Source of the DNA: Escherichia phage JLBYU50
Length of the DNA stretch: 64,000 nucleotides
Reading direction: 5' to 3' (one strand)
Sequence record: OK272470.1
Shown here: positions 42,506 to 58,975 of the stretch, in pieces
Layout of the letters: the number at the start of each line of letters is the position of its first letter
Numbering within the stretch: position 1 is the stretch's first letter
Translations under genes and position numbers: made by a program
Notes under the pieces: model-generated
Seen by the model: the letters and a program-made list of their open reading frames with translations, nothing else
The model's database searches: none
What the model was told of the DNA's origin: nothing

Positions 42506-42883
42506 TTATTTCAGTTTGTAAACAATTACATTTAAACCTTTGTTTACTAGAGTTTCTTCGATCATAAGTTTTACAATATTCCAAGAACCTCCAGCCAAAC
42601 CACAACCAAGCATTGGTAAACCTACAATTTTACCGCCTGAAGATACAACATCGTCTCCCATACTATCTAGCGCATTGTAGATAGCTTCATAATTCAGGTC
42701 ACGCTTACCTTCCTCACGACGACTATAACCATATTGTCCATATAAATTATAAATTGTCAAATTGTTTTCTGTATATTTGGTAAACGTACCTAATTTTTTA
42801 TAATCACCACGTTTAGTGGCACAATCTGCTTTAAACGCACCAGGCCACTTGCTTTTAATTTTTGGTGCAATACCACTACCCAT
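42506..42883 (-). CDS. macro-domain-like protein (N-terminally truncated relative to canonical macro)
   Basis: MGSGIAPKIKSKWPG resembles macro Gly-rich phosphate loop; C-terminal KIVGLPMLGCGLAGGSWNIV resembles second macro signature; start overlaps stop of AAA+ gene. Confidence 0.4.
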   Translation of the reverse strand: MGSGIAPKIKSKWPGAFKADCATKRGDYKKLGTFTKYTENNLTIYNLYGQYGYSRREEGKRDLNYEAIYNALDSMGDDVVSSGGKIVGLPMLGCGLAGGSWNIVKLMIEETLVNKGLNVIVYKLK

Positions 42884-43829
42884 AGTGCAAAAACAGTTGA
42901 AGATGCTCTTCTCCTGACTTATGGTCTACAGCTACAACATAACGATTACCGCTAAACAAACCTTGTGCTGTCATACCGTCAATATCGGTATCTGCCGAAA
43001 CATCTCCTGTACGATCTACACCGTTAACTTTCAGGAGTTTAACTTCTTTTGCAGCATAGCGGTGTTCAGTAATACTGATACCCATTAATGCAAGTGCATC
43101 AGAGAATTTGTCATTAGGGTAACGGTTAAGTTCTTCTACTAGTGACTGAACAATATCAAAGTTCAAGTCCACGGAAAGATTATAAAGCGTTTCAAAATCT
43201 GGTAAAAAGGCTTTGTTCTCCAGATTTTTAGCCAGATAGTCATCCATAGTAGCTTTAGGTAGTTTCTTATAGCTAAAGCTGTAGAAAATACGGCTAGGAC
43301 GATTACGCAAAAATTCTGATACATAACCATCATTTTTAGTCAATACAAACAGCTTGTCATAGCCACCAACACCATCCAGCAGGGTAAGCAAACCATCCTG
43401 TGCATCTTTTTCAGCATACAGTTTATCAAATTCATCGATCATAATCATCACAGGTTGTGTGATTTTAGACATAAAATTGATAAAGCCTTCACCATTAAAA
43501 GCACTACCGATAGAAATAGTAGGAATACCCATTTCACGAAGAGCAGAAGATAGCATTTTAGCTTGCAAAGTTTTACCGCTACCCTTCGTACCCTCAAGGA
43601 GAACACCTGTGTTTTTACCTTTGCGGCTAAGGAACGTCTTGATAATACGTTCTGATTTATCATCAGTATCACCGTATGTTACTGAAGGGACTTCCATATC
43701 GTTTTTAGGATACAGGAAGAACTCACCACTTTGAGTAACACCTACACCAAAAGTTCCTGCTGGAATTTCTTCAATATCTGTACCAGACTTCTGACGCAGG
43801 AAGATTTGATTGCCGAATACTGTAAACAT
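42876..43829 (-). CDS. AAA+ ATPase (paralog A)
   Basis: Walker A GTKGSGKT; Walker B IMIDEFDK; sensor-1 FVLTKN; Arg-finger NRPSRIFY. Confidence 0.65.
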   Translation of the reverse strand: MFTVFGNQIFLRQKSGTDIEEIPAGTFGVGVTQSGEFFLYPKNDMEVPSVTYGDTDDKSERIIKTFLSRKGKNTGVLLEGTKGSGKTLQAKMLSSALREMGIPTISIGSAFNGEGFINFMSKITQPVMIMIDEFDKLYAEKDAQDGLLTLLDGVGGYDKLFVLTKNDGYVSEFLRNRPSRIFYSFSYKKLPKATMDDYLAKNLENKAFLPDFETLYNLSVDLNFDIVQSLVEELNRYPNDKFSDALALMGISITEHRYAAKEVKLLKVNGVDRTGDVSADTDIDGMTAQGLFSGNRYVVAVDHKSGEEHLQLFLHYG

Positions 43830-43849
43830 AGTTTTCTCCTCTATTTAAT

Positions 43850-44320
43850 TTAGTCAGATTCCCAAATGTTGTCTTTCTTAACCCACATTCGTTGATTATC
43901 TGAACCTCTATAACGTTTCGTTGTTGGTTGATTCATATCATACTTACCATCTATCACTATGTCAACCAGTTTTTTAATTTTTTCTGGAATTTCTTCAAAA
44001 AGATATCCTGTATATAAGACAATATCTTTTTTGTTTCCAAAACAATCTCTTACCTTTTCAAGAACATACTCTACAGTATCAATGTTCTCTTTGTCAAGAG
44101 GTTCACCACCTAAAACTGTTAATCCTTTAATGAAAGGTCGAGATAAATCTTTCAAGATAAGATCTAATGTTTCAGTAGTGAACTCTTGTCCGTAGTTATA
44201 CGACCAGGCTTTCTGGTTAAAGCAGCCACGGCAACCGTGGCTACAACCGCTCACCCACAAAGAGCATCTTACACCGTCACCGTTGAGCATGTCAACAGGT
44301 TCATATCCGGCGTAATTCAA
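43850..44320 (-). CDS. nrdG: anaerobic ribonucleotide reductase activating protein (radical SAM)
   Basis: CSHGCRGCFN radical-SAM cysteine cluster; 156 aa; start overlaps nrdD stop. Confidence 0.8.
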   Translation of the reverse strand: MNYAGYEPVDMLNGDGVRCSLWVSGCSHGCRGCFNQKAWSYNYGQEFTTETLDLILKDLSRPFIKGLTVLGGEPLDKENIDTVEYVLEKVRDCFGNKKDIVLYTGYLFEEIPEKIKKLVDIVIDGKYDMNQPTTKRYRGSDNQRMWVKKDNIWESD

Positions 44321-46116
44321 AAATGTTTCTCCCTTTCTAATACTTCTTGCATTTTACCTTTATTATAAGGGCGAGAGTTAGGGGCAGAAAGGTATCCTGA
44401 CACTCTTCTGATCACAGATATGGATTCTTCTTCATGATTACCGCAACTTGGACACTCGAAGCCTTTAGCCGTTGCTTTAAATTCACCATGAAAACCACAT
44501 TTGAAACACTGATCTACAGGTTGGTTCACGCCAAAATAAGGAATTTTATTGTAGGCATAATCTACAAGAGTTTCCAGTGCTTGCAAGTTATTTTTAAGGT
44601 TTGGTGTTTCTACATAACCTATGTTCCCACCATTACTAATTTGTGCAAAACCTTCCTCATAATCCCACTTTTGGAACGGGGTAGTGTGCATCCACACAGG
44701 TTGATGGAAAGAGTTTGTCAAGTAGTCACGATCAATAGAACCAGGATAGCGATCATTTAATGCTTTGGCAAATTTATAGCACAAGGATTCTGCTGGTGTT
44801 CCATACAAACTAAAAGCTAAACCAGAACGTTCTTTAAATGTGCCACAGATATCCTTCATATATTGAAGGATGTTTTTACCCATTGCTTTTGGATTGGTGT
44901 TACCTGGGTATAAAATCTCCATAGCTTCTGCTAAACCTACGTAACCGATACTAATAGAGGCATAACCACCTTCGAATAGTTTACCAATCTCTTCATTAGC
45001 TTCTAGTCGAGCTAAAGCCCCTTCCATAAACAATGTAGGGTTTTGAGATGCTTTGGTATGTCTAATACGGTTAACACGTAGCATATGTGCCTTATACGCC
45101 ATCTCCATATGTTGTTCCAACAGTTCAGTAAATAAGATGCCCTTTTCACGGGACTCTGCTGCAATGATAGGTAAGTTTAAAGAAACTACGCCTAAGTTGA
45201 AACGACCATCATATTTTTCACCTTGCTCTGTTGCATAGTATGACAAGAAGCTACGGCAACCCATGCTTGTGACGCGACCATCTGAAGATCCTGTAACCTC
45301 TTTGTTTAAAGGTACAGAGATAAAATCAGGATAAATGCGTTCAGCACAACACTCCATTGCCAGTTGCTTCAAATCATAGTTTGGATCGCCAGCTTTCATG
45401 TTAACACCATCTTCCAAGAAGAAGATAACTTTAGGAAACACAGGAGTTACTCTATCTTTTCCCAACCCTTGTTTGTGCACCATTAGGTAGTTTTTAGTGA
45501 TCATTCTACCAAAAGCAGAGGTATCCAAGCCTAAACTAATTGTTATAAAAGGTGACTGACCATTTACACTCATTAGAGTGTTCACCTGGTAGATTAAAGT
45601 TTGCATTGCATCATAGACCTGTTTATCTACCATACGCATAGCAATATCATAATCACCAACATCAGCATATATTTTATTAAAACTTGCTTTAACGTATTGA
45701 CTAAGCCCAGTATCAACATGTGCACAAGTTTGTCCACCATATTGGCTAGAAGCTACTGCTTGAATAATTTGAGTTAGGACAGTAGTCGCTACACCGATAG
45801 ATTTTGGTTTTTCAATATGTGCATTACCAATACGGAAACCGTTCTCAAGCATATCTTGGTAATTTACCAGGCAACAATTAGTTAAAGGTGAGAGTAAATA
45901 ATCTAAATCGTGGATGTGACCATACCCACTTTTATGCCATTCTGCTAAATCTTCAGGTAAAATATGGGTCATTGCCATGTGCTTGCTTAGGATACCTGCT
46001 AGTAAATCTCGGTGAGTATTAACAATCATTGCAGGTTTGTTTGCATTTTCACGAGTAAATTCTTCGGATGTTTGTTCGAGGAATCCGATTACATCCTCAT
46101 ATAGTTTTTGGGTCAT
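44317..46116 (-). CDS. nrdD: anaerobic ribonucleoside-triphosphate reductase
   Basis: 599 aa; C-terminal Zn ribbon CFKCG...CPSCGNHEE and glycyl-radical motif RRVSGYL. Confidence 0.85.
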   Translation of the reverse strand: MTQKLYEDVIGFLEQTSEEFTRENANKPAMIVNTHRDLLAGILSKHMAMTHILPEDLAEWHKSGYGHIHDLDYLLSPLTNCCLVNYQDMLENGFRIGNAHIEKPKSIGVATTVLTQIIQAVASSQYGGQTCAHVDTGLSQYVKASFNKIYADVGDYDIAMRMVDKQVYDAMQTLIYQVNTLMSVNGQSPFITISLGLDTSAFGRMITKNYLMVHKQGLGKDRVTPVFPKVIFFLEDGVNMKAGDPNYDLKQLAMECCAERIYPDFISVPLNKEVTGSSDGRVTSMGCRSFLSYYATEQGEKYDGRFNLGVVSLNLPIIAAESREKGILFTELLEQHMEMAYKAHMLRVNRIRHTKASQNPTLFMEGALARLEANEEIGKLFEGGYASISIGYVGLAEAMEILYPGNTNPKAMGKNILQYMKDICGTFKERSGLAFSLYGTPAESLCYKFAKALNDRYPGSIDRDYLTNSFHQPVWMHTTPFQKWDYEEGFAQISNGGNIGYVETPNLKNNLQALETLVDYAYNKIPYFGVNQPVDQCFKCGFHGEFKATAKGFECPSCGNHEEESISVIRRVSGYLSAPNSRPYNKGKMQEVLEREKHF

Positions 46117-46135
46117 TAATCCTCCGTGGAAAATA

Positions 46136-46160
46136 AAAGCCAGCTTAATGCTGGCTTTAG
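46136..46160 (-). terminator. rho-independent terminator
   Basis: aagccagc-ttaat-gctggctt hairpin followed on - strand by TTATTTTCC. Confidence 0.65.
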
Positions 46161-46205
46161 GGTGGATCTTTATTTTAAATCTTTTTCGTAAGATTGTCCT
46201 TGATC

Positions 46206-47156
46206 TTAGTCAAGGTTTTTGGTAATACGTGTACAACCGTCAGAAGTCAAACCGTCAACTTGAGTTTCCCAAGTACCATGAATATTTCGGAACAATGTTG
46301 TTACACCTTTTGGTTCATTAATAATGATTGCCATAACAAGTTTAGGATCGATAACAGACATAATCTTTTCCTCAATACCCTCTGTAATAACATTATTGCG
46401 CACAATATTAATTGCATCTTCTTGTACAGTAAGAGCACTTACGTTCTTAAGAGTATATACCTGCTGCGTAGTGTAAATGATACGAACATAGCTTACAGAA
46501 CGAGTAGGCACAGGTTTACGCGGTCGGCGAAAACGTGGTTTTGGTGAAGATTCAGTCTTACTTTCATTTTTTGAATAATACTCCTCAAACAGTTTAGTAA
46601 ATGTTTTTACATCAACTACAAATCGATCTTTCCTATATGGAGAATTCTTATGTGCACCATTAATACCACTGTTTTCATCGAAGAAAGTAATGTTTTCTTC
46701 AGTTGAATACATTAGATAATGATCTGCATTTTTCCAATGTGGTTGTGGACAATGAGGATTACAAACGGAAAGCAAGTAATTAATATTTTCTTCCGTGGCC
46801 TCAGTATCCAGGAAACACGTATTATGCACAGTCAGTTGTACTTTTTCAGCCATATCTTTTTCTTTATCCTCTTTAGCAAGATATTCAGTACGAATAATCT
46901 CCAGAAAACCTTCAGGTGTTACTTCCATAAATTTATATTCAGGATGAAGCTCCATATATTCAAATCCACAACCATCTAATTGCTGTAGAAAGTTAGGGTA
47001 GAAGAACAAGTCATTAACACTATGAATCAGATCATTGATTTCTGCTTCAGATGTGTAACCAAAACTTTTGTGAATTGCTTCGTTAAGAATATGCAGGATA
47101 CCCATCTCTTCTGCTGCTTTTTTAACTTCCAGTTTATTAGCGTAAAATGCAATCAT
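46206..47156 (-). CDS. hypothetical protein
   Basis: 316-aa ORF. Confidence 0.5.
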   Translation of the reverse strand: MIAFYANKLEVKKAAEEMGILHILNEAIHKSFGYTSEAEINDLIHSVNDLFFYPNFLQQLDGCGFEYMELHPEYKFMEVTPEGFLEIIRTEYLAKEDKEKDMAEKVQLTVHNTCFLDTEATEENINYLLSVCNPHCPQPHWKNADHYLMYSTEENITFFDENSGINGAHKNSPYRKDRFVVDVKTFTKLFEEYYSKNESKTESSPKPRFRRPRKPVPTRSVSYVRIIYTTQQVYTLKNVSALTVQEDAINIVRNNVITEGIEEKIMSVIDPKLVMAIIINEPKGVTTLFRNIHGTWETQVDGLTSDGCTRITKNLD

Positions 47157-47173
47157 TATGTTCTCCTTCTAAA

Positions 47174-47608
47174 TTAGTTTAAAATTTCTTTTGCAATGGT
47201 AGAAGCAAGTTTTCCATCATATTGATTCGGATACTCTGCTTTAAGGTGTTTCATCATATCTGGCATTTTCTTGCCTGTCAAGGCAAATTCTTCAGCAATA
47301 GCTCGAAGATCATCTTCAGATAGCATTTCTGGCAAATATTTTTCCAGAGTGGTGATATCACGCATAGCTCGCTCACATTTGCTAATGGAGGCATTAACTT
47401 TCTTAAGCGAGTCTAGTTCCTCTTTAGCGTGTGCAATACCAATCTTAACAATGTTAATCATAATATCGTCTTCTGATTTATTCAGATTTACCTTTTGAGT
47501 ACGAGCAAGGTCAAACTCACCAATAATATTAGTTAACAAAGCAAAAGCACCCTTATCGGTTGTACGTGCTAAGATACGATCTGCTTTCATTTGTGTCACA
47601 ATAGACAT
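47174..47608 (-). CDS. YqeY/GatB C-terminal-like domain protein
   Basis: KYLPEMLSEDDLRAIAEEFALTGKKMPDMMKHLKAEYPNQYDGKLASTIAKEIL matches YqeY signature (YLPxQLSEEE..., GRADGKLVS). Confidence 0.6.
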   Translation of the reverse strand: MSIVTQMKADRILARTTDKGAFALLTNIIGEFDLARTQKVNLNKSEDDIMINIVKIGIAHAKEELDSLKKVNASISKCERAMRDITTLEKYLPEMLSEDDLRAIAEEFALTGKKMPDMMKHLKAEYPNQYDGKLASTIAKEILN

Positions 47609-47620
47609 TCTATTCTCCTC

Positions 47621-48193
47621 TTATTCGCTAATGCTTTGAATCTTATTTACAACACGGTTTATTGCCAGTGAAGCCCTAGGCTCCGCAATACCTGTTGCAT
47701 AGATATAAGGATGACCTTTTGGAGACTCCCTCATACCGAATGAACCTAATTCTAAACCATATTCATCCTCTACGTCAACCCCCATATTAGTGGGTACTAA
47801 ATATGTTTTAACTCCATAATAAGTAGAGAAGAAACAGCGCATAGCGTTAGCATACTCTTCAATTGTAGCATCAGGGTAGAACTCAATCAACTCCAATTTC
47901 AAGAAAATATTAAAATGAGTATCATCTAAATTTTCTTCTGTGCGGTAACATGGTGTTAGTGCCATATACGGATTACCTACTGCAAATTCAAAACCATCCT
48001 TCTCCATTTGCAGGAAAGATTGTTCTGCACTAGCTACATAGTATTTACCGTTAGGATGCCCTAATGGGCGATCCTCTTTATTTTCTGGTAGTGTATACGC
48101 CAGTATATCAGCATCCACGAGATATGGAACTTCTAACATTTGTGCAAATCGACCATAGTAATCAATAGCTTGAGCTATTACTGCAACATTCAT
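47621..48193 (-). CDS. hypothetical protein (possible class II aminoacyl-tRNA synthetase-like core)
   Basis: CYRTEENLDDTHFNIFLKLELIEF resembles class II motif 2 (fRxE...H..EF..E); weak motif-3-like GIAEPRASLAI. Confidence 0.3.
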   Translation of the reverse strand: MNVAVIAQAIDYYGRFAQMLEVPYLVDADILAYTLPENKEDRPLGHPNGKYYVASAEQSFLQMEKDGFEFAVGNPYMALTPCYRTEENLDDTHFNIFLKLELIEFYPDATIEEYANAMRCFFSTYYGVKTYLVPTNMGVDVEDEYGLELGSFGMRESPKGHPYIYATGIAEPRASLAINRVVNKIQSISE

Positions 48194-48441
48194 GATCGAC
48201 CTCCATTGCGGAATGCACGTTTAGTAATGTTTGACATAGTGATCAAATCTTGAAGCGTCATACCAGGAAAATGCTGTTCAAGAACACCTTCAACAGCGCC
48301 TACAATATCTGACAACTCAATAAGTTGCATCAGCTTGCAATCTTGATCAATAGCATCTTGAAGTTCATAAAGCTCTTCTTGAATCTTAGCAACAGAACCA
48401 TACTCCTCTTTGCTAATCTCCTTCAAATGATACCCTGCCAC
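48190..48441 (-). CDS. hypothetical protein (possible MazG-like all-alpha NTP pyrophosphatase)
   Basis: EELYELQDAI ... ELSDIVGAVEGVLEQ acidic helix pattern; weak. Confidence 0.3.
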   Translation of the reverse strand: MAGYHLKEISKEEYGSVAKIQEELYELQDAIDQDCKLMQLIELSDIVGAVEGVLEQHFPGMTLQDLITMSNITKRAFRNGGRS

Positions 48442-48451
48442 TTTAACCCCC

Positions 48452-50188
48452 TTAGTTTACCAGTTTATTTATGTCTGGTAAAAGATTTATTTCACCTAAG
48501 AAATCACCTTCACCTTCCTCTAGCCAACTCTCATATGCTTGTGCATGATTATAGTTACCATCAAAAGAATCTGCAACAAATTTTTCTACAGTTTTTCGAG
48601 ATGTGCCAGCGCCAAATACACCAAGTTTAATACCATTGATCGGTAAAGTGGTGCTTGTTGGTACTTTCTCTGTTGCAACACGGTTGATATCTATAATCTC
48701 CTGTACGGTTGTGTTCCATTGTAAGCATTTAACACAACGGGTATGCGCTACATACAGTAGGTTTCGCTCTGCCTCTTCCAGTCCTACCCATTCACCAGTC
48801 TTTTTATCATAGTTGGAAGGAAAATCATTAGCAACAATAACCTGATCCCACTCCAAACCTTTAGACTTGTGTGCTGTAGTCAGTGTGACTTTTGCTGTAG
48901 GAGAATTTCTATGCGTTCTAAGTGTATGTGCTATGGTGTTCGCCTTACCAGAAACTACGATGTTTAACAAGCGTTTAGCATCTGGATCAGCCTCTGCACA
49001 CTCAACAAATTCATCCCAGTCTGCGTAAGGTAATACAGTTTCATGTTTTACTTTCTCAATATCTCCTCTACGAAGAGCATTAACACTATCTACCATAGAG
49101 ATAAAATCCCTGGTATCTACGTTAATAATAATTTCTTCCCCATCTGCAATACGATCCATTGCCTCCATAAGCAAGGTTAAATTCTTGCGAAAGATGATAG
49201 TGTAAGGTTTTGTATAGTCTACAACATCTGATTTGTAGCTACCTACTACAGTATCAAAGCCTTTACCAACCAAAGGATGACGCAAAGGTTCTTTATCGCT
49301 TAAAATCATATTGGCAATGTTTGCCACTTTGGGGCCAAAACGGAAGCAAGCAGTTAATGGAAGCTCTGCCCCATATGTAGATGTTTCCTTCATCATATTT
49401 TGGCTTCCACGGAACTGGTAGATGCTCTGATATTCGTCACCCACCACTACTACTTGTTTTGCAGATTTAGCATTTCGCAGAATAGACAAGAATGCAGGGT
49501 TAACATCCTGGAATTCATCACCAAAAATAATATCATAACCAAGATCAGCACCAGACAATTCAAACAATTTTACATAGGTGTCATGCGTCATCAAAGTATC
49601 TGTGTTAGGATCGATGCGCTCTCGCCACAATTGTTTTGCATACTTAACTACTTCTGTAATTAGTTTGTGTTCGTTAATACCTTTTCTTTTAATATCTGCA
49701 AGATGTACACCAGGAAAATGTTTACGGCTAATAAAAGGATCATCCGAAAATTCAAACTTACCTACGGTTTGCTTGATCATTAAACCAATCATAGCACGAG
49801 TTAAAAGTGTTTTCCCTCGTTTATCAATAAGATTATTAATCTTAAATTTCTTTGCTATCTCGCTACCTGTACCTGCAACGTTAACATACTGTCCTTCTGG
49901 TCGTGACAGTTTTGCACGTAAACGATGATCCAGGAATTGATAGCAAATAGAATGCAATGTACGGCATTCTACATTTAGTGGCATCTTACGTCGTGCTTCT
50001 TCTGCCATGCTTTTATTGAAAGCTAAGTAAAGAATGCGATCTTCTGTACTGTTAGCCAGCAAATAAAGTGTTGACGTTTTGCCTGATCCAGATTTAGCTT
50101 GGATAGTTAAAAAACGATGGTCTGGAAAAGCCTCCTTAATAGCTGTTTGCTCTTCTGTTGGAGTAAAACTCAACTCTTTCTTAGCCAT
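48452..50188 (-). CDS. superfamily 1 DNA helicase (UvrD/Dda-like)
   Basis: Walker A AKSGSGKTST; motif II FGDEFQD; start reassigned to ATG at 50188 (RBS agagagg). Confidence 0.7.
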   Translation of the reverse strand: MAKKELSFTPTEEQTAIKEAFPDHRFLTIQAKSGSGKTSTLYLLANSTEDRILYLAFNKSMAEEARRKMPLNVECRTLHSICYQFLDHRLRAKLSRPEGQYVNVAGTGSEIAKKFKINNLIDKRGKTLLTRAMIGLMIKQTVGKFEFSDDPFISRKHFPGVHLADIKRKGINEHKLITEVVKYAKQLWRERIDPNTDTLMTHDTYVKLFELSGADLGYDIIFGDEFQDVNPAFLSILRNAKSAKQVVVVGDEYQSIYQFRGSQNMMKETSTYGAELPLTACFRFGPKVANIANMILSDKEPLRHPLVGKGFDTVVGSYKSDVVDYTKPYTIIFRKNLTLLMEAMDRIADGEEIIINVDTRDFISMVDSVNALRRGDIEKVKHETVLPYADWDEFVECAEADPDAKRLLNIVVSGKANTIAHTLRTHRNSPTAKVTLTTAHKSKGLEWDQVIVANDFPSNYDKKTGEWVGLEEAERNLLYVAHTRCVKCLQWNTTVQEIIDINRVATEKVPTSTTLPINGIKLGVFGAGTSRKTVEKFVADSFDGNYNHAQAYESWLEEGEGDFLGEINLLPDINKLVN

Positions 50189-50189
50189 T

Positions 50190-50666
50190 TCAACCTCTCT
50201 TAATTTGTTTAACAAGCATAGGAACAAAATCTCGTTTTAAAATTTGTTCAATAATATGATCAGGTAGCTGTTGGAAATTATAATTAAAAGCTACTGTCTC
50301 ACCTTTAGGTGTTTCTACCCGCACATATAACATGTTACGAAGTTTATCCACTTGTGCTGTGTATTCTAAACCATGTAATTGATGTAATGCAAACATCAAA
50401 TCATCAGTTTCAGTTTGGAATCTATCCCTTCCCTGCATCAAGGACAAGGAAAAAGGTAGATTTTCCCTAAGAGCCACCTTCTTAGGCACTAGTGAAGGGA
50501 AATACTCCCCAATAACTTCCTGTGTAAGCTGAATACACTCTTTTTCAAGCTGGTTTTGTTCCTTGAGTTCACAAACACTCTTTTGTAAAGTATTAACCTC
50601 TTTTTGCAAAGCTGCTAGTTGAGCACTTAACTTTCTTTTTTGATTACGACCAAAACGTTTAGACAT
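50190..50666 (-). CDS. hypothetical coiled-coil protein
   Basis: 158 aa, N-terminal heptad region. Confidence 0.45.
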   Translation of the reverse strand: MSKRFGRNQKRKLSAQLAALQKEVNTLQKSVCELKEQNQLEKECIQLTQEVIGEYFPSLVPKKVALRENLPFSLSLMQGRDRFQTETDDLMFALHQLHGLEYTAQVDKLRNMLYVRVETPKGETVAFNYNFQQLPDHIIEQILKRDFVPMLVKQIKRG

Positions 50667-50780
50667 ATTTCCCCCTAGTAAAACCCCTTAACAATTTGTA
50701 TTAACTCGGCACAACGGTTGACCAACTTTTCCTCACACAGTACACGTTGTGGCATATGTTGTATAATATACTCCATTTGC

Positions 50781-51191: not shown

Positions 51192-51212
51192 TATATTTTC
51201 CTTATTGGTTTG

Positions 51213-51578: not shown

Positions 51579-51966
51579 AAATATCCTCCCAAATCCAATA
51601 ATCATCTGTGTAAGTAGGATGCCTTTTATCCCACTCTGTTCTAGCCCAAGCAACCGCTGCTACCAACACATCACCATGACAAGGTTGAGGTGAGCAGAAG
51701 CAAACTAAGTCTTTCCCTTCTAATTCTAACAAATCCTCAAGAGTGATTTTACCACAACGAATTTGTTCCCACAACCACTCTTTATATCTTTGTATAGTTG
51801 ACCCTCGTGGTTCATCATCCTTTAACTTAAAAGGATTTGCAAACTTTGAGGCTTTTAACCCCATATGAGGCATAGCTCTGCCAATGTAAACTGCACCTTC
51901 AGGTATTACTTTACCTAAGTGGTAGAAATTCAATACTCTCATATTAACCCAAACACATTTGTGCAA
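51556..51966 (-). CDS. DUF4326-like protein
   Basis: VYIGRAMPHMGLKASKFANPF ... YKEWLWEQI ... GKDLVCFCSPQPCHGDVL matches DUF4326 pattern. Confidence 0.55.
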   Translation of the reverse strand: MHKCVWVNMRVLNFYHLGKVIPEGAVYIGRAMPHMGLKASKFANPFKLKDDEPRGSTIQRYKEWLWEQIRCGKITLEDLLELEGKDLVCFCSPQPCHGDVLVAAVAWARTEWDKRHPTYTDDYWIWEDIYEDYTRN

Positions 51967-52294
51967 TCAAGCCCTGTATAAATTTATTAGCTTCTTTACT
52001 GTCGTAGTCAGTTTCTTCTGGATATCCATCTTCATCGTACACAACTGTACCTTCAATATACCCTGCCTCAATTAAGGCGCGGATCATATCAAATTGCCAG
52101 CATGAGTTACCAAATGGACGTTTACCATTAAAACACTCTTCTTCTTTCCATAACGTAGAGAGTAGTTGTCGGAAATATTCCCGTACAGTGACAGTACCAA
52201 GATCTGAATCCTCAAACATAACATCCAGGGCATCAGGATTGCTTTTCTCTACATAAGGGATATATTTAACACCATTAATAGTTACATCAAGCAC
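51944..52294 (-). CDS. hypothetical protein
   Basis: 116-aa ORF. Confidence 0.45.
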   Translation of the reverse strand: MLDVTINGVKYIPYVEKSNPDALDVMFEDSDLGTVTVREYFRQLLSTLWKEEECFNGKRPFGNSCWQFDMIRALIEAGYIEGTVVYDEDGYPEETDYDSKEANKFIQGLIAQMCLG

Positions 52295-52657
52295 TTATTT
52301 CTCCTTATCATCATATTCTAGGAACATATCTGCACGATATGCTTTACGCTCTTCAAACTTAGCAGGATCTACAACAATAAGCAATACAAGGTTAACATCT
52401 AAATACTTCTTAACAAATAGAAATAAATCTTTTCCACAGTTAAAACCTATACCAGTATAGGCATCCCCATATTGATCTACTGATTTGATCTTCTTACTAA
52501 CCGTACACTCTATGCTATTCTTTTCTTCTTGGTATAAGGCTTTCCCACCCCAATATGTAAAGAATTTAGTACCGTCAGCACCAAGTTTAAAACCCTCTGT
52601 TGCATGTCCCGCAAATGAAAGTAAGCATAACCAAGTGATCATCAGGTACTTTAGCAT
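52295..52657 (-). CDS. secreted periplasmic protein
   Basis: Start reassigned to ATG at 52657; signal peptide MLKYLMITWLCLLSFAGHA. Confidence 0.45.
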   Translation of the reverse strand: MLKYLMITWLCLLSFAGHATEGFKLGADGTKFFTYWGGKALYQEEKNSIECTVSKKIKSVDQYGDAYTGIGFNCGKDLFLFVKKYLDVNLVLLIVVDPAKFEERKAYRADMFLEYDDKEK

Positions 52658-52658
52658 T

Positions 52659-53141
52659 TTAACCACCCAATTGCAAATGTTTAGAAAGAACAATATCCCA
52701 CTGATCACCACAACCGTTATCTATGCGGAACATAATGTACGTATCATCTTCTTCTACGACATATAATACTTCATAGGAATTACAACAGCCTTCCCAATTT
52801 TTAACAGCCTCTGGTGTATCATGTGTAAAAATTTCATTACCATCATATGACCAAAACAAAGGGGTAAGGTTTTCGAAGGTCAGTGAAGTAGGGTTTACTT
52901 CATCTTTAACTGCTTCCTCATATTCTTTATGCGTTTGTACTGCTTTAGTTAGTGTACTCATGTCTATCTCCTTTTCTCCTTCTTGACTATGGAGGATAGC
53001 AAACTCTCTAAACTCCACTTCACGCCACGTTTTTAGGTAGTGCTTTATAATTTTATCAACATCTGCCTGTTCAACATTACTTTTCAAGCAATAGTAATCA
53101 TGGTCTTCGCCCATTCTACCCCATATGCTATACATTGTCAT
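52659..53141 (-). CDS. hypothetical protein
   Basis: 160-aa ORF. Confidence 0.45.
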   Translation of the reverse strand: MTMYSIWGRMGEDHDYYCLKSNVEQADVDKIIKHYLKTWREVEFREFAILHSQEGEKEIDMSTLTKAVQTHKEYEEAVKDEVNPTSLTFENLTPLFWSYDGNEIFTHDTPEAVKNWEGCCNSYEVLYVVEEDDTYIMFRIDNGCGDQWDIVLSKHLQLGG

Positions 53142-53409
53142 CTGATTGATCCTTTACATTGTTCTTGGCATACACAGGAATAACATCATTATGATCTTTA
53201 TTACTTTCATCTGTTAAAGCCCAAAACAACTTACCTGCTGGATGTTTAAAGATGTAAGCAATAGGTTCCTCTTCCTGGGCTTCTTTGCTACGGATACCAT
53301 CCCGCCAGGCAAGCCAAGTGTAGATCATCACTTCTTGACGTTCTTCTTCGTTAGGCCACATATGTGATGGAAAGTTTTTATCAAACCATTGCTTAAATTC
53401 TTCAGTCAT
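53128..53409 (-). CDS. hypothetical protein
   Basis: RBS aaggag 6 nt before ATG at 53409. Confidence 0.5.
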   Translation of the reverse strand: MTEEFKQWFDKNFPSHMWPNEEERQEVMIYTWLAWRDGIRSKEAQEEEPIAYIFKHPAGKLFWALTDESNKDHNDVIPVYAKNNVKDQSDDNV

Positions 53410-53419
53410 AGTCTACTCC

Positions 53420-53584
53420 TTAGCGTACAAAGTTAACTTCTGCTTCTTTCAGCTTTGACACTTCTACATAACCACCATGATCATCTTTAATCCATTCTTT
53501 TCCTTTACGGATGATAACAGGATATGTAGAGTGAGTAAGTTTAGGTACAGATCTTTTTGTTTTAGTGATAGAAATGTTTTGCAT
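53420..53584 (-). CDS. hypothetical small protein (54 aa, not in ORF track)
   Basis: ATG at 53584 preceded by RBS aaggag; stop TAA directly precedes RBS of next gene. Confidence 0.4.
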   Translation of the reverse strand: MQNISITKTKRSVPKLTHSTYPVIIRKGKEWIKDDHGGYVEVSKLKEAEVNFVR

Positions 53585-53644
53585 AGTAGTCTCCTTAGTA
53601 AATTTTACATAGAGTCTAGATTATTTAGTAGATAGAGTCAATAA

Positions 53645-53911
53645 CTAATTACTGTTAGATCTGTATTCTGTCTTCCATTCACAATGGTAAACTTCAACAG
53701 GTTCTAACTTCCAATGTTCAGGAACTAATTCAGGGCAATATCTACAAAAGAGAAATAGATAGATAACTAAGACAGGTATTAAATAGTAAAATGGTATACG
53801 ATCATAACCATACTTACGAGATAACATGTAGACATATAGATAGGGTATAACAATTAATCCTATAACTATAAGTAAGAAGAGAAGTATAAACCTTAGTGTA
53901 GTAACATCCAT
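53645..53911 (-). CDS. small membrane protein
   Basis: Two hydrophobic helices (LRFILLFLLIVIGLIVIPYLYV; LIPVLVIYLFLF). Confidence 0.45.
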   Translation of the reverse strand: MDVTTLRFILLFLLIVIGLIVIPYLYVYMLSRKYGYDRIPFYYLIPVLVIYLFLFCRYCPELVPEHWKLEPVEVYHCEWKTEYRSNSN

Positions 53912-54074
53912 AGTATTCTCCTATACAGTAATATACTCTGTTCCTGCCCCTCCATGAGTGACAGGAACAATATCTATAGAGAATACTAACTCGCTTCGCT
54001 CGTCACCTTTCAGGTTTAGGGTAGCATGTTTTTCTGAAAAAGTCAATACTCTCCACAAAACTTTACAAAATACT

Positions 54075-54347
54075 TTACATAGGTACAACAGAGTCTGTTT
54101 TGAAGTCGTACATATGATTTACACCTGTGATTTTTGACATAGAGATTGCACGTTTAGCACCTGCAATTACCTGGTCTGTCTTCTTAATCTCTTCACGGAA
54201 CTTACGTACAGTTAAAGAGAAGAAACGATGATCCATCCATTGACGATTCACACGATCACGCTTGAAGTGACGGAAATCTTCAATCTGTTTATTGCGCAAT
54301 CGGCGCAGTACATGCAATAGTTGATAGTAAGGGTGTTTATTTTTCAT
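54075..54347 (-). CDS. hypothetical basic protein
   Basis: 90-aa Arg/Lys-rich ORF. Confidence 0.45.
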   Translation of the reverse strand: MKNKHPYYQLLHVLRRLRNKQIEDFRHFKRDRVNRQWMDHRFFSLTVRKFREEIKKTDQVIAGAKRAISMSKITGVNHMYDFKTDSVVPM

Positions 54348-54350
54348 AAA

Positions 54351-54779
54351 TTATTCTCCAAATCGAAAATCGTCAATATCATCAAACCATACACAATGGC
54401 GAGTCCTTTCTTTTTCTGTTGCAGACATTGTTTCAACAGCTTTAGGACTAAGCACAACAGGAATGTAACGAACAGGTCGTTCATAATAGTAGCCATACTT
54501 TTCTGTATTAGCTGCCTCAAAGACTTTACGGCGTTCTTCAAGATCTTCTATGGTGAATCCTACCATATAACCATCATGTTTGCTACCCCATCCTTCCTCA
54601 CTTTCAACAATCGGGATATAAAAGCCGTTACGCGTCCCTGACACTGGTTTTTCTTGAGCCTGAAGGCAAGCCTCCCATCCTGCTTTAAAGACGTTATAGA
54701 GCGATTTACGCACGTTATGAGTGCCGCTTTCGCTTGCTGGATAGAGTTCATTAAATTTGTCTTGAATTTGTTGTGTCAT
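54351..54779 (-). CDS. hypothetical protein
   Basis: 142-aa ORF. Confidence 0.45.
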   Translation of the reverse strand: MTQQIQDKFNELYPASESGTHNVRKSLYNVFKAGWEACLQAQEKPVSGTRNGFYIPIVESEEGWGSKHDGYMVGFTIEDLEERRKVFEAANTEKYGYYYERPVRYIPVVLSPKAVETMSATEKERTRHCVWFDDIDDFRFGE

Positions 54780-54993
54780 ACTCGCCCCTTAGTGATTATT
54801 TGACCAGCTAAACAAATAGCTTGTAGTACAATAAAGAAGTAGCCTAATTTTACACTACCCGATACCCAGAATGCAATGTTTGCAAACAAACAAAAAGCAA
54901 TATTAAGTCTAAAGAATAACATTTAATCCCCTTCATATTTAGGTAAAGGCATATATGCCACAATAGGAGGGTAATCAAAGTGAAAATGATGGT

Positions 54994-55122
54994 TCACCAC
55001 GATAATCTTACCCGACATACTTTTATGCACTTCACAATACCCTTTTCACCATCTTCCATTACCACCACATACTCACCTAGTGGAATATCGTATGGATCTT
55101 CTACTTTTACCCATTCTGTCAT
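54994..55122 (-). CDS. hypothetical small protein (42 aa), possibly 5' part of a frameshifted gene
   Basis: ATGA overlap with upstream small ORF; a second frame continues for 31 more codons from 55018 to 54923. Confidence 0.3.
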   Translation of the reverse strand: MTEWVKVEDPYDIPLGEYVVVMEDGEKGIVKCIKVCRVRLSW

Positions 55123-55274
55123 TTTGTAAACTCCTCATAGTAAGGTAAAGCCTTGATCAGTTGTTCTGAAGTGCCATTTTGTACCCACGTAACACCATTG
55201 TCAACAGAAACATACCCTTTTTTGTCAATAAATTTACGCAGACAGCCCGTGAACTTATTTTTGTAGATAACCAT
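55119..55274 (-). CDS. hypothetical small protein (51 aa, not in ORF track)
   Basis: RBS aaggag 5 nt before ATG at 55274; stop overlaps next start. Confidence 0.4.
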   Translation of the reverse strand: MVIYKNKFTGCLRKFIDKKGYVSVDNGVTWVQNGTSEQLIKALPYYEEFTK

Positions 55275-55286
55275 GTTTACTCCTTG

Positions 55287-55643
55287 TTACATCCACAGGT
55301 TATGAAAATACTTAGCAAACAAAATGCGACCTTCTAAACGATCTTGCCGCTGTTTTTCATTAACTTCTTCTGGTGGAGTTGAGTCCTTAAAAGAAGACTC
55401 CATTTTTTCAAGAATTTCTAACCAGTGTTCTGCTGCTCGTTCTTCCATATAAGGTAGATAGTCACCTTTAGCGTGTGGGTACATCCGACGAAGTAACCCG
55501 CTAGGAATTTTAACATTGTTTGTGGCTATCACTTTTGCACGATATGCAGAAAGTGCATTGTAGATCAGTTTACTTAGTGTCACATCTAGATCAAGAAGAT
55601 CACTCTCTTCAAATTGAATTTCATCGTGTACAATTTTCATCAT
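55287..55643 (-). CDS. hypothetical protein
   Basis: 118-aa ORF. Confidence 0.45.
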   Translation of the reverse strand: MMKIVHDEIQFEESDLLDLDVTLSKLIYNALSAYRAKVIATNNVKIPSGLLRRMYPHAKGDYLPYMEERAAEHWLEILEKMESSFKDSTPPEEVNEKQRQDRLEGRILFAKYFHNLWM

Positions 55644-55924
55644 GCTTTCTCCCGATCTGCCTCTAATTTCAATAAGAAAGCTGTATACTCTTCCGAGCCT
55701 TGGTGTAAAAACATGCGATAAGAGCTTACTAGTTTCTTCGTTGTCGTATAACGTTCCATTTCCCCAACAACACCTCCACCCAAGGTGTAGAGCACAACAC
55801 CCTCAAACCCAACATGAGTTACTACTTCAATCAAATCTGTGTTATCCCAATGGTAGTTAGGTGACACAATAAGATCGCCAACTGCCAATTTAATGTTTGC
55901 TGCTTCGTTTTGTGAATAATACAT
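55640..55924 (-). CDS. hypothetical protein
   Basis: 94-aa ORF, ATGA overlap. Confidence 0.45.
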   Translation of the reverse strand: MYYSQNEAANIKLAVGDLIVSPNYHWDNTDLIEVVTHVGFEGVVLYTLGGGVVGEMERYTTTKKLVSSYRMFLHQGSEEYTAFLLKLEADREKA

Positions 55925-55936
55925 TTGGTTCTCCTC

Positions 55937-56227
55937 TCACATTAAAACACGTTTTGCATTGCTTGGTGCATTGTCGAACATGTTTATCACTTTGTCAAGT
56001 TTGTGTATTAACTCGTTCGTAATGTTCCACTCTTTGTATGATCTCCATTGTTTCTTATTCTCACCTACCTGGTGTAAAACTTTGATGGGTGCATTCAAAC
56101 GTACATTGCGTTCTTTGTCCTCTTCAAAAGAGGCTAACCATTTTTCGTTATGTCCATGAACAGCAATAATAATGCCAAAACCATCAAAAGTTTCTGTAAT
56201 ATTCTTAGTTGCTAGTGTGATGTTCAT
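55937..56227 (-). CDS. hypothetical protein (first gene of - strand block)
   Basis: 96-aa ORF adjacent to divergent promoter region. Confidence 0.45.
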   Translation of the reverse strand: MNITLATKNITETFDGFGIIIAVHGHNEKWLASFEEDKERNVRLNAPIKVLHQVGENKKQWRSYKEWNITNELIHKLDKVINMFDNAPSNAKRVLM

Positions 56228-56286
56228 ATCTAACCTCTTTTGTTACGATACACACAGAGTACCAGAAATTAATTTCAGATCAAGTA

Positions 56287-56315
56287 TTGACATACTGTTT
56301 TATTGTGCTAATCTT
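56287..56315 (+). promoter_or_regulatory. sigma70-like promoter in divergent intergenic region
   Basis: TTGACA at 56287-56292, about 16-17 nt spacer, TAATCT -10-like element. Confidence 0.45.
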
Positions 56316-56346
56316 AATGCATACACAAATGAGAGGAGATAAACGA

Positions 56347-56898
56347 ATGCAAAACATCGATCTTACTTGGATAGAAGCCAAAGAAGCAATGTTAAAAGGC
56401 AAACGCGTTAAACATAAATACTTTTGCGAAGGAGAATGGTTTGAAATGCGTAACCGATCCATTGTAGATGAAAAAGGGAATGACATGCAACAATGGTTCA
56501 AAAATGAAATTTGGCAGGGAACAGGTTGGTCTGTAGTTGAAGAGCAGCCTAGCTCAATCGCACTGTTTAGCCCTATTATGTATCGCGTTATCGGTGCTTT
56601 AGTTGTTGATCACGGGATTGCAGTGGAAAAAGAATACTGGGAAGAGGTATCTTTTTTCAACCTGGCTTCTTATGCAAAAAGCCATATGCACTTGTTTGAA
56701 GAAGGGGATGAATTTGTTCTTCGTATGCGATATGGCAAAGAATTCAGATTACCACTTGATAACGATGTAGACACTGTTGTAAAATGGTTAGCAGAGCATT
56801 ATGCTTACGATGCAATTTGTGGTCGCAGCTTCGGCAACGAACGCTGGGACATGATTTGTGAAAAATATGATTTTGAGCCGGAATACGGAGTTTTATAA
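56347..56898 (+). CDS. protein with DUF2829-like N-terminal domain (Tad2-like candidate)
   Basis: Start reassigned to ATG at 56347 (RBS gagaggag); N-terminus LTWIEAKEAMLKGKRVKHKYF resembles DUF2829 opening FGEALEALKxGKKVxRxGW. Confidence 0.4.
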   Translation: MQNIDLTWIEAKEAMLKGKRVKHKYFCEGEWFEMRNRSIVDEKGNDMQQWFKNEIWQGTGWSVVEEQPSSIALFSPIMYRVIGALVVDHGIAVEKEYWEEVSFFNLASYAKSHMHLFEEGDEFVLRMRYGKEFRLPLDNDVDTVVKWLAEHYAYDAICGRSFGNERWDMICEKYDFEPEYGVL

Positions 56899-57149
56899 TG
56901 TTAAGTATCAAACCTAAAATGATAACAGCAGATGAAGCAGACTTTATTTTCAAATGTGGACATGTATGGAGAGAATTCACAAAAGGGAATGAAGTGGTGG
57001 TTGTTGTCGAACACAAGATATCTATCCAGGATCTGTTTGGACAATATGTTGATGTTATTAAATTAGGTATTGACAAGGGTTTAGTTGAGGTGTTAACATT
57101 AGATCAAGTTGAAGCAGAGCACCTCGATAAAGTAGTGGTTGAATTTTAA
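56898..57149 (+). CDS. hypothetical protein
   Basis: 83-aa ORF, TAATG overlap with upstream gene. Confidence 0.45.
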   Translation: MLSIKPKMITADEADFIFKCGHVWREFTKGNEVVVVVEHKISIQDLFGQYVDVIKLGIDKGLVEVLTLDQVEAEHLDKVVVEF

Positions 57150-57169
57150 AATACAGACGGGAGAAAGGT

Positions 57170-57343
57170 ATGAGTTTCTTTGTTACAGTATTTATGGCTA
57201 TCTGGATTGTAGTCTCACTCGTTCTTTTCCTGGTGGGTTGTCTGGAAGAGATTAAGAAAGCGGTTATTTGCGGTTTCTTTGGCTTTATTATCTCTCCTGC
57301 CTGGATGTGGTTCTTCATTATGATTGGTTTCCTTAAAAGGTAA
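57170..57343 (+). CDS. small hydrophobic membrane protein (57 aa, not in ORF track)
   Basis: RBS gggagaaagg before ATG at 57170; two predicted TM helices. Confidence 0.4.
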   Translation: MSFFVTVFMAIWIVVSLVLFLVGCLEEIKKAVICGFFGFIISPAWMWFFIMIGFLKR

Positions 57344-57357
57344 GTGAGGAATAAAGA

Positions 57358-57795
57358 ATGAGTAAAACAAACGCAATCGCAGATAAAGCAACTGATGTAC
57401 TTCTGAACATGGTTAACGTCACTATTCAAACAATGAGTGATGTTGTGGAGTTTGGAAAACAACAAATTCCAGAAGTAATCCATCAATTATTAGTGTGGAA
57501 AGCAGTATCCGCAGGTTTATGGCAACTTTTTGGTATTTGCTTTATGTTTATTACTTTTATTGCTGTGCGGAACCTCGTAAAAGCAATTAAAGATAAAGAA
57601 TGCCTGTGGTCACGAGATCGCTATGGTGAAGTATCTGCTTTACCTATTGTTGGTCTTGTTGTCTGTGCTTTCTTTTTCTTTTTAGGATTTGTTATTTTCT
57701 TTTCGAATTTTGATTGGCTAAAAATCATTATTGCACCAAAAGTGTATCTGATTGAATTTGCTGCTGATTTAATTCGTTCATCTCAACAAAAATAA
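57358..57795 (+). CDS. membrane protein
   Basis: 145 aa with two long hydrophobic helices. Confidence 0.5.
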   Translation: MSKTNAIADKATDVLLNMVNVTIQTMSDVVEFGKQQIPEVIHQLLVWKAVSAGLWQLFGICFMFITFIAVRNLVKAIKDKECLWSRDRYGEVSALPIVGLVVCAFFFFLGFVIFFSNFDWLKIIIAPKVYLIEFAADLIRSSQQK

Positions 57796-57806
57796 AAGGG
57801 GTTAAA

Positions 57807-58934
57807 ATGAAATACACGATTTATGGTGATATTGTAAGTGTAAATAAAGATATGGGCGTGGAATCTAACTATCTTCCACCTGGATTCTATACTGTTAGTC
57901 GTGATCCCCTTGGCAATTATTTTTTAAGCCGTGGTAATCTGACAGGTGTACCGGATGTTTTGTATGGTGAAACAGAAAAACGAGCAAATCACGTTATCCG
58001 TACATTCCATCGCCGGAGTGCACAAGGTAAAAACACAGGCTTGCTTCTGACAGGAACTAAGGGCAGTGGTAAAACTATGTTAGCCAAACTCATTAGTCGT
58101 GACCTTGTAGAAGAAGGTATTCCAACTATTATGGTTACTCAAGCCTACAGTGATGCTAATTTCATTGAACTTATTAGCAAGATCACCGACAAAGCAGTGA
58201 TTATTTTTGACGAGTTTGATAAAGTGTATGAGAAGAAACAAGATCAAGAAGCACTTCTCACTTTGTTAGATGGTACTGGCAGTGGTAATAAACTGTTTAT
58301 TCTGACTAAAAACAGTGGTTTTATTTCTGAATTCTTTTTAAATCGTCCTAGTCGTGTGTTTTATAATTTTAATTATGATAAAATCTCACTAGAAACTATG
58401 ATTGACTATTTAGATAAAAACCTAGATAACAAAGCACACTTTGATAATTTCCAAAGACTTTGGGATGTAAGTTTAGAGTTGTCCTTTGATGTGATCCAAG
58501 GTATAGTAGAAGAACTTAATTTCTACCCTGATTTATCCTTTAAAGAATGCATCTCTATGATGGGCGTTTCTTTAGGTGGTGGTAATAAATGGGATATCAG
58601 CAGTGTTGTTATTAATGGGAAACTTCAGAAAGTTAGCTGGGTATCTAGTTGGCATAACTTTACACCTGCAATCTTTTTAGGTGGCTCGTGCACACTAGAC
58701 GTGTACTTGTCATCTCCAAGTGATGCAGACTCTAAAGAAGCCCTTGCTAATAGCTCTTACGTGGTTTTTGATGATGAAGGAGATGCTCGAATTCCATTGA
58801 ATGCGACAAAAATGAAAGCAGATCTTATTACAGGCGGTAAAATCGTTGTGTTTAGTGATGATCCAGAAGATTCTTTCCGTATTGTTCTGGAGCCAACTAT
58901 CACCAATGGTGCAACTTTGGCAAGTGTGTTTTAA
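57807..58934 (+). CDS. AAA+ ATPase (paralog B)
   Basis: Walker A GTKGSGKT; Walker B IIFDEFDK; sensor-1 FILTKN; Arg-finger NRPSRVFY; collinear with paralog A across about 300 aa. Confidence 0.65.
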   Translation: MKYTIYGDIVSVNKDMGVESNYLPPGFYTVSRDPLGNYFLSRGNLTGVPDVLYGETEKRANHVIRTFHRRSAQGKNTGLLLTGTKGSGKTMLAKLISRDLVEEGIPTIMVTQAYSDANFIELISKITDKAVIIFDEFDKVYEKKQDQEALLTLLDGTGSGNKLFILTKNSGFISEFFLNRPSRVFYNFNYDKISLETMIDYLDKNLDNKAHFDNFQRLWDVSLELSFDVIQGIVEELNFYPDLSFKECISMMGVSLGGGNKWDISSVVINGKLQKVSWVSSWHNFTPAIFLGGSCTLDVYLSSPSDADSKEALANSSYVVFDDEGDARIPLNATKMKADLITGGKIVVFSDDPEDSFRIVLEPTITNGATLASVF

Positions 58935-58949
58935 GTAAGCCAGCAAATA

Positions 58950-58975
58950 AAAACCCGCTTCGGCGGGTTTTCTTG
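58950..58975 (+). terminator. rho-independent terminator
   Basis: acccgc-ttcg-gcgggt hairpin followed by TTTTCTTG. Confidence 0.75.

Follow-up and report, generated by a model that had tools for sequence, protein, structure and literature searches.

The window, that is, the whole 64,000-nucleotide stretch of DNA from Escherichia phage JLBYU50 that was analysed (sequence record OK272470.1), carries two genes for AAA ATPases on opposite strands. They are called copy A and copy B here. The phage is a Justusliebigvirus-like E. coli myovirus: the window region was 97-98% identical to Justusliebigvirus genomes of ~147 kb (Stephanstirmvirinae; E. coli myoviruses), among them VivaForever and PaulScherrer/Bas60. 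Copy B is intact, and copy A is shortened by a deletion that also cuts into a macrodomain gene. The features of the two genes and of the deletion are given below, with conservation read from an alignment of 58 family sequences (aa, amino acids; ORF, open reading frame).

42876..43829, minus strand: copy A, truncated AAA ATPase, 317 aa (ORF and translation, phrog_2376 match)
57807..58934, plus strand: copy B, intact AAA ATPase, 375 aa (ORF and translation, phrog_2376, Pfam AAA, AlphaFold model)
58053..58076, plus strand: Walker A of copy B, GTKGSGKT, residues 83-90 (K89 invariant)
58143..58154, plus strand: pore-loop-1-like segment of copy B, AYSD, residues 113-116, between β2 and α2
58206..58223, plus strand: Walker B of copy B, FDEFDK, residues 134-139 (D135 and E136 invariant)
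58302..58355, plus strand: second region of homology of copy B, from LTKN (sensor-1 N169) to NRPSR (R180, R183)
42898..42899, no strand: junction of a 2,460-bp deletion (direct alignment with VivaForever and PaulScherrer)
42506..42883, minus strand: macrodomain remnant, the C-terminal 125 aa of a 244-aa protein (Pfam Macro PF01661, 2.8e-5)

A preliminary description of this DNA had proposed that the two ORFs are paralogs. This was borne out by BLASTP, with 119 identities over 254 aa (47%), 70% positives and an E-value of 5e-83. The pairwise alignment was also checked for a likeness confined to the P-loop. Instead, it spanned residue 2 to residue ~255, and because the similarity reaches far past the P-loop, the observation of paralogy stands. 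The four motifs named in that description (GTKGSGKT, DEFDK, LTKN and NRPSR[IV]) were all found in both copies. The collinearity was real as well, but its length was 254 aa and not about 300 aa for copy A as it stands in the window.

The copy A of relatives is 386 aa long and aligned with copy B end to end with 145 identities in 375 positions (39%); both paralogs thus possess a C-terminal domain. Full-length A and B were most alike in the AAA core and lid (53% identity) and less so in the N domain (27%) and the C domain (23%). The extra C-terminal region reported for copy B is indeed missing from the copy A of the window, but the difference arises from the deletion in A. The C-terminal excess of B, which had formed part of the basis for a claim of subfunctionalisation, is a deletion artefact of the present genome. 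Taken together, the alignments support A and B as true, old paralogs. Since both keep all catalytic residues, they are probably catalytically active where intact. The pair is already apparent in the GenBank annotation ('ATPase (x2)'). The new elements are the deletion and the linkage to NAD (nicotinamide adenine dinucleotide) modules only; otherwise, this is an uncharacterised member of a known AAA kind.

Copy A is short in the window because 2,460 bp of VivaForever and PaulScherrer are missing at 42898|42899 in the direct alignment (3901-6360 in L001). The junction is blunt, and no microhomology was found at it. What is left is residues 1-310 of the 386-aa form, extended by seven residues from out-of-frame read-through (QLFLHYG). 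The last 76 codons, about two thirds of the C-terminal domain, were lost, and the AAA core is whole. Downstream of the 386-aa A, the same strand of VivaForever and PaulScherrer carries two small ORFs and then genes for a HAD-like hydrolase, a phosphoribosyltransferase and a macrodomain protein of 244 aa. The deletion takes out the two small ORFs, the HAD hydrolase, the phosphoribosyltransferase (PRTase_3, PF15610) and the N-terminal half of the macrodomain gene. A macro-like ORF had been described after copy A; Pfam confirmed it as Macro (PF01661), and it is the C-terminal half of the 244-aa protein.

The junction was found in none of 54 related phage records, and intact 386-aa A was also present on two IMG/VR contigs. 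The truncated A and a 6.1-kb stretch over the junction were 100% identical in the Logan assembly SRR25464451, a sample that may be the same phage. As this assembly has the identical junction, the deletion is not confined to the window's own assembly. The genome is hence a natural deletion variant without the Ter-type PRTase_3/HAD pair, half of the macrodomain gene and the C-terminal end of A. As such, it could serve directly as a mutant for probing what the PRTase_3/HAD/Macro cassette does.

In copy B, an N-terminal β domain (residues 1-45) precedes the AAA core with its lid (55-255), and a β-rich domain (260-365) lies on the C-terminal side. The AlphaFold model of B had a predicted local distance difference test (pLDDT) score of 87.7. 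Pfam gave only a modest AAA match for B (PF00004, 1.5e-9). The profile of phrog_2376 ('ATPase') matched copy A with an E-value of 9.8e-104 (profile positions 2-288 of 363) and copy B with 6.6e-108 (positions 1-357 of 363). Clamp-loader and DnaC-like PHROGs matched ~100 orders of magnitude more weakly than phrog_2376.

Besides the Walker residues, N169, R180 and R183 were invariant in the 58 sequences, and the family consensus of this region is NRPGRIFY. This is the RPGR double arginine that classical AAA proteins carry in their second region of homology. The invariant residues of the lid were F227, D228 and N238, and R180 and R183 were the only invariant arginines. There is no sensor-2 arginine, as the lid has no conserved arginine. 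In the pore-loop segment, position 114 was aromatic in 47 of 58 sequences and position 116 was Gly in 41 of 58, which makes the family consensus aromatic-x-Gly; the segment reads FNG in copy A and YSD in copy B. In the AlphaFold model of B, it lies in a 6-residue loop (111-116) between E107-110 and H117-125; the β2-α2 segment is shorter than in p97.

The family profile was compared with all PDB sequences. The top 60 matches were all classical-clade proteins (p97/Cdc48/VAT D2, AFG2, NVL/Rix7 and Bcs1), and the best E-value was 3e-13. In the profile alignment to p97 D2, the family's 'aFsG' fell on the pore loop 'WFG' and 'nRPgRi' fell on 'lRPGRL'. The best single matching structures were Bcs1 and bacterial Trip13. 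By sequence and predicted fold, the ATPase module groups with the classical-clade AAA proteins, i.e. p97/Cdc48, Bcs1, NSF, Rpt and the AAA module of FtsH. We consider its assignment to this structural and mechanistic class, the classical AAA remodellers, highly probable.

The similarity to classical AAA proteins (p97/Cdc48 D2, AFG2, NVL/Rix7, NSF D2, Rpt and the FtsH module) extends over Walker A and B, the sensor-1 Asn, RPxR, the lack of a sensor-2 arginine and, as a family consensus, a pore-loop-like aromatic-x-Gly motif after β2, and it includes the profile match and the top fold matches. Unlike them, the phage proteins (340-410 aa) have a single AAA module, a 45-aa β domain of their own at the N-terminus, an unmatched C-terminal β domain and a shorter β2-α2 segment, and they are essentially phage-specific. 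The likeness to bacterial Trip13/Pch2 of the cyclic oligonucleotide-based antiphage signalling system CBASS (PDB 6p8v) holds at the level of the AAA fold only, and the phage ATPase has no HORMA partner or CD-NTase context. SRC and HEXXH motifs were sought in A and B, and neither was present. A fold match was sought for the C-terminal domain (110 aa, β-rich), and none was found.

Two sets of matches were discarded. A borderline phmmer match (E 8e-4) between residues 201-291 and the effector domain of influenza NS1 was taken to be spurious: it straddles the boundary between lid and C domain and was absent from the profile search. The matches to Hda, DnaC-like, IstB and RuvB in NCBIfam and to mad8 and IetA in PADLOC were all sub-threshold, so these collections give no family assignment.

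Among 1.84 billion representatives, the family had 3,295 clusters at 50% identity and E <= 1e-10, and 1,083 at 1e-30. Family matches started at residues 2-24 and finished near residues 240-290, which makes the N domain, AAA core and lid the conserved unit. Across the family, the N domain is conserved, and the C domain is variable and poorly conserved. The family was present in 360 of 50,697 phage records from many taxa. These were Stephanstirmvirinae, ~350-kb jumbo phages (CBB, fHe-Yen9-04), Atu_ph07, Aeromonas and Salmonella 7-11-like phages, Lactococcus 949 and Herelleviridae-like phages of Gram-positive bacteria. A survey of 185,579 species genomes turned up no more than 38 loci, nearly all on contigs of metagenome-assembled genomes (MAGs). 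The phrog_2376 family is essentially phage-specific.

A characterised homolog was sought in the literature, and nothing was found on the phrog_2376 ATPase. Family records were nearly always named 'ATPase'. The few misnomers were 'FtsH-like protease', 'ATPase or Zn metalloprotease', 'DnaC', 'replicative helicase' (Klebsiella phage KP2025) and 'DNA polymerase III subunit beta' (Proteus phage 3H10_20), and these are unsupported by the domain content. A better public annotation would be 'classical-clade AAA ATPase, function unknown'.

There are two copies in Justusliebigvirus. The single copy of Phapecoctavirus is B-type, lies at the syntenic position and is followed by a terminator, an endonuclease gene and a DUF1768/NADAR gene. 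Copy A was found in Justusliebigvirus and some relatives. In a neighbour-joining tree built from the 255 conserved columns, the A-type sequences grouped with P0024/P0028 in a clade that was sister to the B-type clade with a bootstrap of 0.82, and the jumbo-phage clade lay outside with 0.96. The ancient duplication put forward in the preliminary description is supported by the sister position of the two clades and by the single syntenic B-type copy of Phapecoctavirus. The simplest reading of these sequences would be an old duplication within the phage lineage, with B as the ancestral copy; A may also have passed between related phages. Alternatively, copy A may have been acquired horizontally with the Macro-PRTase-HAD cassette and not by duplication of B. 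Its absence from Phapecoctavirus fits such a gain, as does the fact that the P0024/P0028 group, the B-types and the jumbo-phage types all lie about equally far from it (40-47%). Moreover, A is always accompanied by HAD, PRTase_3 and Macro. However, A and B share one clade that leaves the jumbo-phage sequences outside, and no closer donor lineage was seen among the ~3,300 family clusters. We therefore regard horizontal gain as unlikely, and duplication of B is preferred.

The gene neighbourhoods of the ATPase relatives were compared in 80 viral loci. ORFs were called and clustered all against all, and shadows of the ATPase gene were set aside. The top recurrent neighbour was a fusion of NMN adenylyltransferase and Nudix (NMNAT-Nudix), found in 28 of 80 loci. 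Nicotinamide phosphoribosyltransferase (NAMPT) came next with 20 of 80 loci, all on the same strand and with a median gap of -94 bp. A macro-like protein was found in 19 of 80 loci and PnuC in 10. Pfam confirmed the NMNAT-Nudix, NAMPT and PnuC clusters; the macro-like representative had no Pfam match and was named by its resemblance to the macrodomain sequence of the window. Seed searches showed that NAMPT ends 74-95 bp upstream of the ATPase gene on the same strand in 11 loci. They also placed HAD, PRTase_3 and Macro behind every A-type copy and NADAR behind B-type copies. PnuC and NadR lie 5-7 kb from the ATPase gene in the ~350-kb phage clade.

NARP1, NARP2 and NARP3 are experimentally defined phage NAD+ reconstitution pathways (bioRxiv 10.1101/2024.02.11.579819; PMC13464706), and NARP2 occurs in ~1.1% of phage genomes (bioRxiv 10.1101/2024.02.11.579819). 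Genes of all three adjoin phrog_2376 members in different lineages. The ATPase itself does not figure among the described NARP components, and the word 'ATPase' is not present in the NARP1/2 and NARP3 papers (bioRxiv 10.1101/2024.02.11.579819; PMC13464706). A same-strand module of NMNAT-Nudix, macro-like protein (most loci), NAMPT and ATPase, in which NAMPT stops 74-95 bp short of the ATPase start, was seen in the environmental viral contigs L031, L033, L049, L055, L056, L058, L065, L072, L078 and L083 (at about 6-11 kb in each). It looks like an extended NARP2 operon. In the Ochrobactrum jumbo phage vB_OspM_OC (L006), the order is NMNAT-Nudix, NAMPT, PnuC and NadR-like, and the ATPase follows after a 28-bp gap. 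This locus has NARP2-type genes 4-6 kb upstream of the ATPase together with a NARP3-type PnuC/NadR-like pair next to it (L006 6242-9182), and so has two pathways at one locus. In Aeromonas phage BUCT695, a Prs-like+NAPRTase (NARP1-type) pair, TerC and two TerD genes lie upstream of the ATPase.

At least one NAD/ADP-ribose gene was found within 10 kb of the ATPase in 37 of 78 IMG/VR loci (39 of 80 with L006 and L007). Counted by lineage (70% identity), at least one of the de novo clusters NMNAT-Nudix, NAMPT, macro-like and PnuC was nearby in 18 of 35. When a primase-helicase was used as the control anchor, the number was 3 of 38 loci (8%), all from one lineage. The odds ratio of ATPase to control anchor was ~10 (p ~2e-5, uncorrected for relatedness). 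The linkage is real in several clades, comes in at least five different arrangements and is not family-wide. In the MAG-derived loci, the recurrent neighbours had no Pfam annotation except HNH and PrkA in single lineages, and the neighbourhood of the sister group of A (P0025, L090) held no informative genes.

The neighbours of the two copies in JLBYU50 are as follows.

43850..44320, minus strand: NrdG, directly upstream of copy A
44317..46116, minus strand: NrdD, upstream of copy A on the same strand
40973..41950, minus strand: TerC, Ter-type module downstream of copy A
38091..39194, minus strand: TelA, Ter-type module
36050..36844, minus strand: vWA-TerF-like, Ter-type module
35381..35977, minus strand: TerD, Ter-type module
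58950..58971, plus strand: strong intrinsic-terminator-like hairpin, AAAACCCGC-TTCG-GCGGGTTTT, directly after copy B
59009..60001, plus strand: CapR-repeat / T5orf172 endonuclease-like gene, downstream of copy B
60002..60553, plus strand: NADAR-domain (ADP-ribose-processing) gene (Pfam NADAR 2.5e-36)

Copy A belongs to a minus-strand string that starts with NrdD, NrdG and A. Two small ORFs, HAD and PRTase_3 come next and are deleted here. After Macro, the string continues with two small ORFs, TerC, two ORFs without a Pfam match, TelA, another ORF without a Pfam match, vWA-TerF-like and TerD. By its gene content, this string is recognisable as a phage-borne Ter-type system of the jumbo-phage kind. 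In the Ter-type systems of jumbo phages, PRTase and HAD were proposed to make a nucleoside-like signal (PMC7824862). The deletion removes exactly this Ter-type biosynthetic pair (PRTase_3 and HAD). With PRTase_3 and HAD counted from the relatives, a fairly complete Ter system lies here in a 147-kb myovirus, although most descriptions of such systems come from jumbo phages.

A short plus-strand unit begins at a divergent junction near 56.25 kb and ends with copy B. The annotation of Schickermooser likewise shows a terminator at this position behind its ortholog of B. The NADAR gene downstream of B-type copies was also found in L008, L009, L011 and Schickermooser. Matches to sigma-70-like promoters were no more frequent than in shuffled sequence and were dropped.

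With a probability of roughly three in four, we read the two genes as paralogs of a phage-only classical-clade AAA family, with B as the ancestral, syntenic copy and A as the truncated one, and propose that the family acts as a ring remodeller. By analogy with classical AAA proteins, each protein would most likely assemble into a hexameric or heptameric ring. R180 and R183 of RPxR would act in trans, as part of the ATP site of the neighbouring subunit. The ring would use ATP hydrolysis to remodel, unfold or translocate a protein gripped by the aromatic-x-Gly loop, and the N domain and the variable C domain would choose the substrate or partner. The gene neighbourhoods suggest that this substrate may belong to the counter-defence and host-takeover biology of NAD+, ADP-ribose and Ter-type metabolism and not to DNA replication.

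The role in the context of NAD+/ADP-ribose/Ter-type counter-defence is a tentative part of this reading, and any specific target is doubtful at best. One speculative version, which we would not bet on, is a dedicated accessory of NAD+/ADP-ribose counter-defence. Such an accessory could be an unfoldase of host NADase assemblies (Sir2, TIR, SEFIR-type) or of ADP-ribose-linked immune complexes, or an activator or recycler of phage NAMPT and NMNAT. It would work beside NARP1/2/3, Macro, NADAR and the Ter-type PRTase/HAD, and the C domain, diverged between A and B, would set the target. A family of ~3,300 clusters that is repeatedly found beside NAD+-reconstitution genes is a concrete candidate for an unrecognised phage counter-defence component.

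Several observations weigh against the proposed remodeller and its role. In copy B, the pore-loop Gly is replaced by Asp (AYSD), and the short β2-α2 helix typical of the classical clade is not evident in the AlphaFold model. NAD/ADP-ribose neighbours were present in only 2 of 38 MAG-derived loci, which limits the link to some clades, and the neighbour counts are not phylogenetically corrected. In JLBYU50, the terminator and the endonuclease gene intervene between B and NADAR, and the NARP1 genes are at a distant locus, away from A and B. Moreover, the linkage may partly stem from a general clustering of auxiliary genes in large phages.

Among the other roles that can be considered, a virion-assembly chaperone or folded-protein translocase analogous to mitochondrial Bcs1 survives best, and still we judge it quite improbable. 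Iyer et al. 2021 proposed an assembly role for 'BCS1 orthologs' of jumbo phages, for which no accession is given (PMC7824862), and these may be the phrog_2376 family. Unlike Bcs1, however, the phage ATPase has no transmembrane helix or anchor and no PF08740 match; its N domain is a 45-aa β unit and its accessory β-rich domain is C-terminal. A and B also lie outside the structural module (window 1-21.7 kb, plus strand), and the recurrent neighbours are metabolic or counter-defence genes and not structural ones.

Replication roles fare worse. The preliminary description had called the replisome T7-like, which was confirmed by two genes given here as context only.

25069..27648, minus strand: family A DNA polymerase
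28145..29917, minus strand: primase-helicase (Toprim+DnaB_C)

A helicase loader or initiator-type AAA+ protein (DnaC, IstB, Hda, Cdc6-like), as some database names have it, is very unlikely. The DnaC/IstB/Hda-type matches were all under the family thresholds. Proteins of the initiator clade carry one Arg finger and a helical insert typical of initiators; here, RPxR is found and classical-clade matches dominate. The primase-helicase of the phage is gp4-like, a type that requires no loader in T7. Furthermore, control loci anchored on the primase-helicase had no copy of the phrog_2376 ATPase.

Even less can be said for a clamp-loader-like replication accessory, in which the paralogs would act as ring loaders or assist the T7-like replisome in some other way. 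Such a resemblance had been suggested from the sensor-1 and Arg-finger arrangement, together with the remark that no sliding clamp is seen. The remark on the clamp was right: none is annotated in the 150-kb PaulScherrer genome, which is 97% identical, and no clamp domain was found by Pfam in the scanned window genes, although not every small unannotated ORF was modelled. The resemblance did not hold up, as hidden Markov models (HMMs), PDB profile and predicted fold all point to the classical clade. With clamp loaders (RFC, gamma/tau, T4 gp44), the ATPases share the general AAA+ fold and weak HMM matches. The E-value was 1e-104 for their own family versus 1e-8 for clamp loaders, which were absent from the top 60 PDB profile matches and the top 50 Foldseek matches. 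The RPxR double arginine stands in place of SRC, no invariant lid arginine provides a sensor 2, and the C-terminal domain is β-rich without a fold match and not a helical collar. Replication genes were not among the recurrent neighbours. As the ATPases are not clamp-loader-like, the puzzle of a clamp loader without a clamp dissolves. Such a pair would have been an oddity of replication, but the modules look like ordinary AAA modules of the classical type.

The reading as an FtsH-like ATP-dependent protease, which several GenBank names imply ('FtsH-like protease', 'ATPase or Zn metalloprotease'), has next to no chance and is already refuted: the AAA module resembles that of FtsH, but there is no M41 peptidase domain, HEXXH or transmembrane segment, and the C-terminal domain is a 110-aa β-rich unit.

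Some further observations were made in the window and its relatives. In PaulScherrer, bas60_0204 (MZ501100 116309-116962) is annotated as 'putative proteasome component'. It lies >30 kb away and outside the window, and it could conceivably provide an AAA unfoldase with a peptidase partner. In the control set, three ~106-kb IMG/VR contigs (L147-L149) carry Prs-like+NAMPT (NARP1-type) and Macro within 10 kb of the primase-helicase; they are one lineage without the ATPase nearby. This arrangement means that NAD modules can adjoin replication genes too. The CapR/T5orf172 gene encodes 330 aa here, 390 in VivaForever, 467 in PaulScherrer and 486 in Schickermooser. The number of CapR repeats is seemingly variable and accounts for the second length difference (~180 bp) between the window and VivaForever. 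The DNA polymerase (25069-27648, minus strand) and a UvrD-like helicase (48452-50227, minus strand) are intein-free in JLBYU50, and their PaulScherrer orthologs are annotated as intein-containing precursors.

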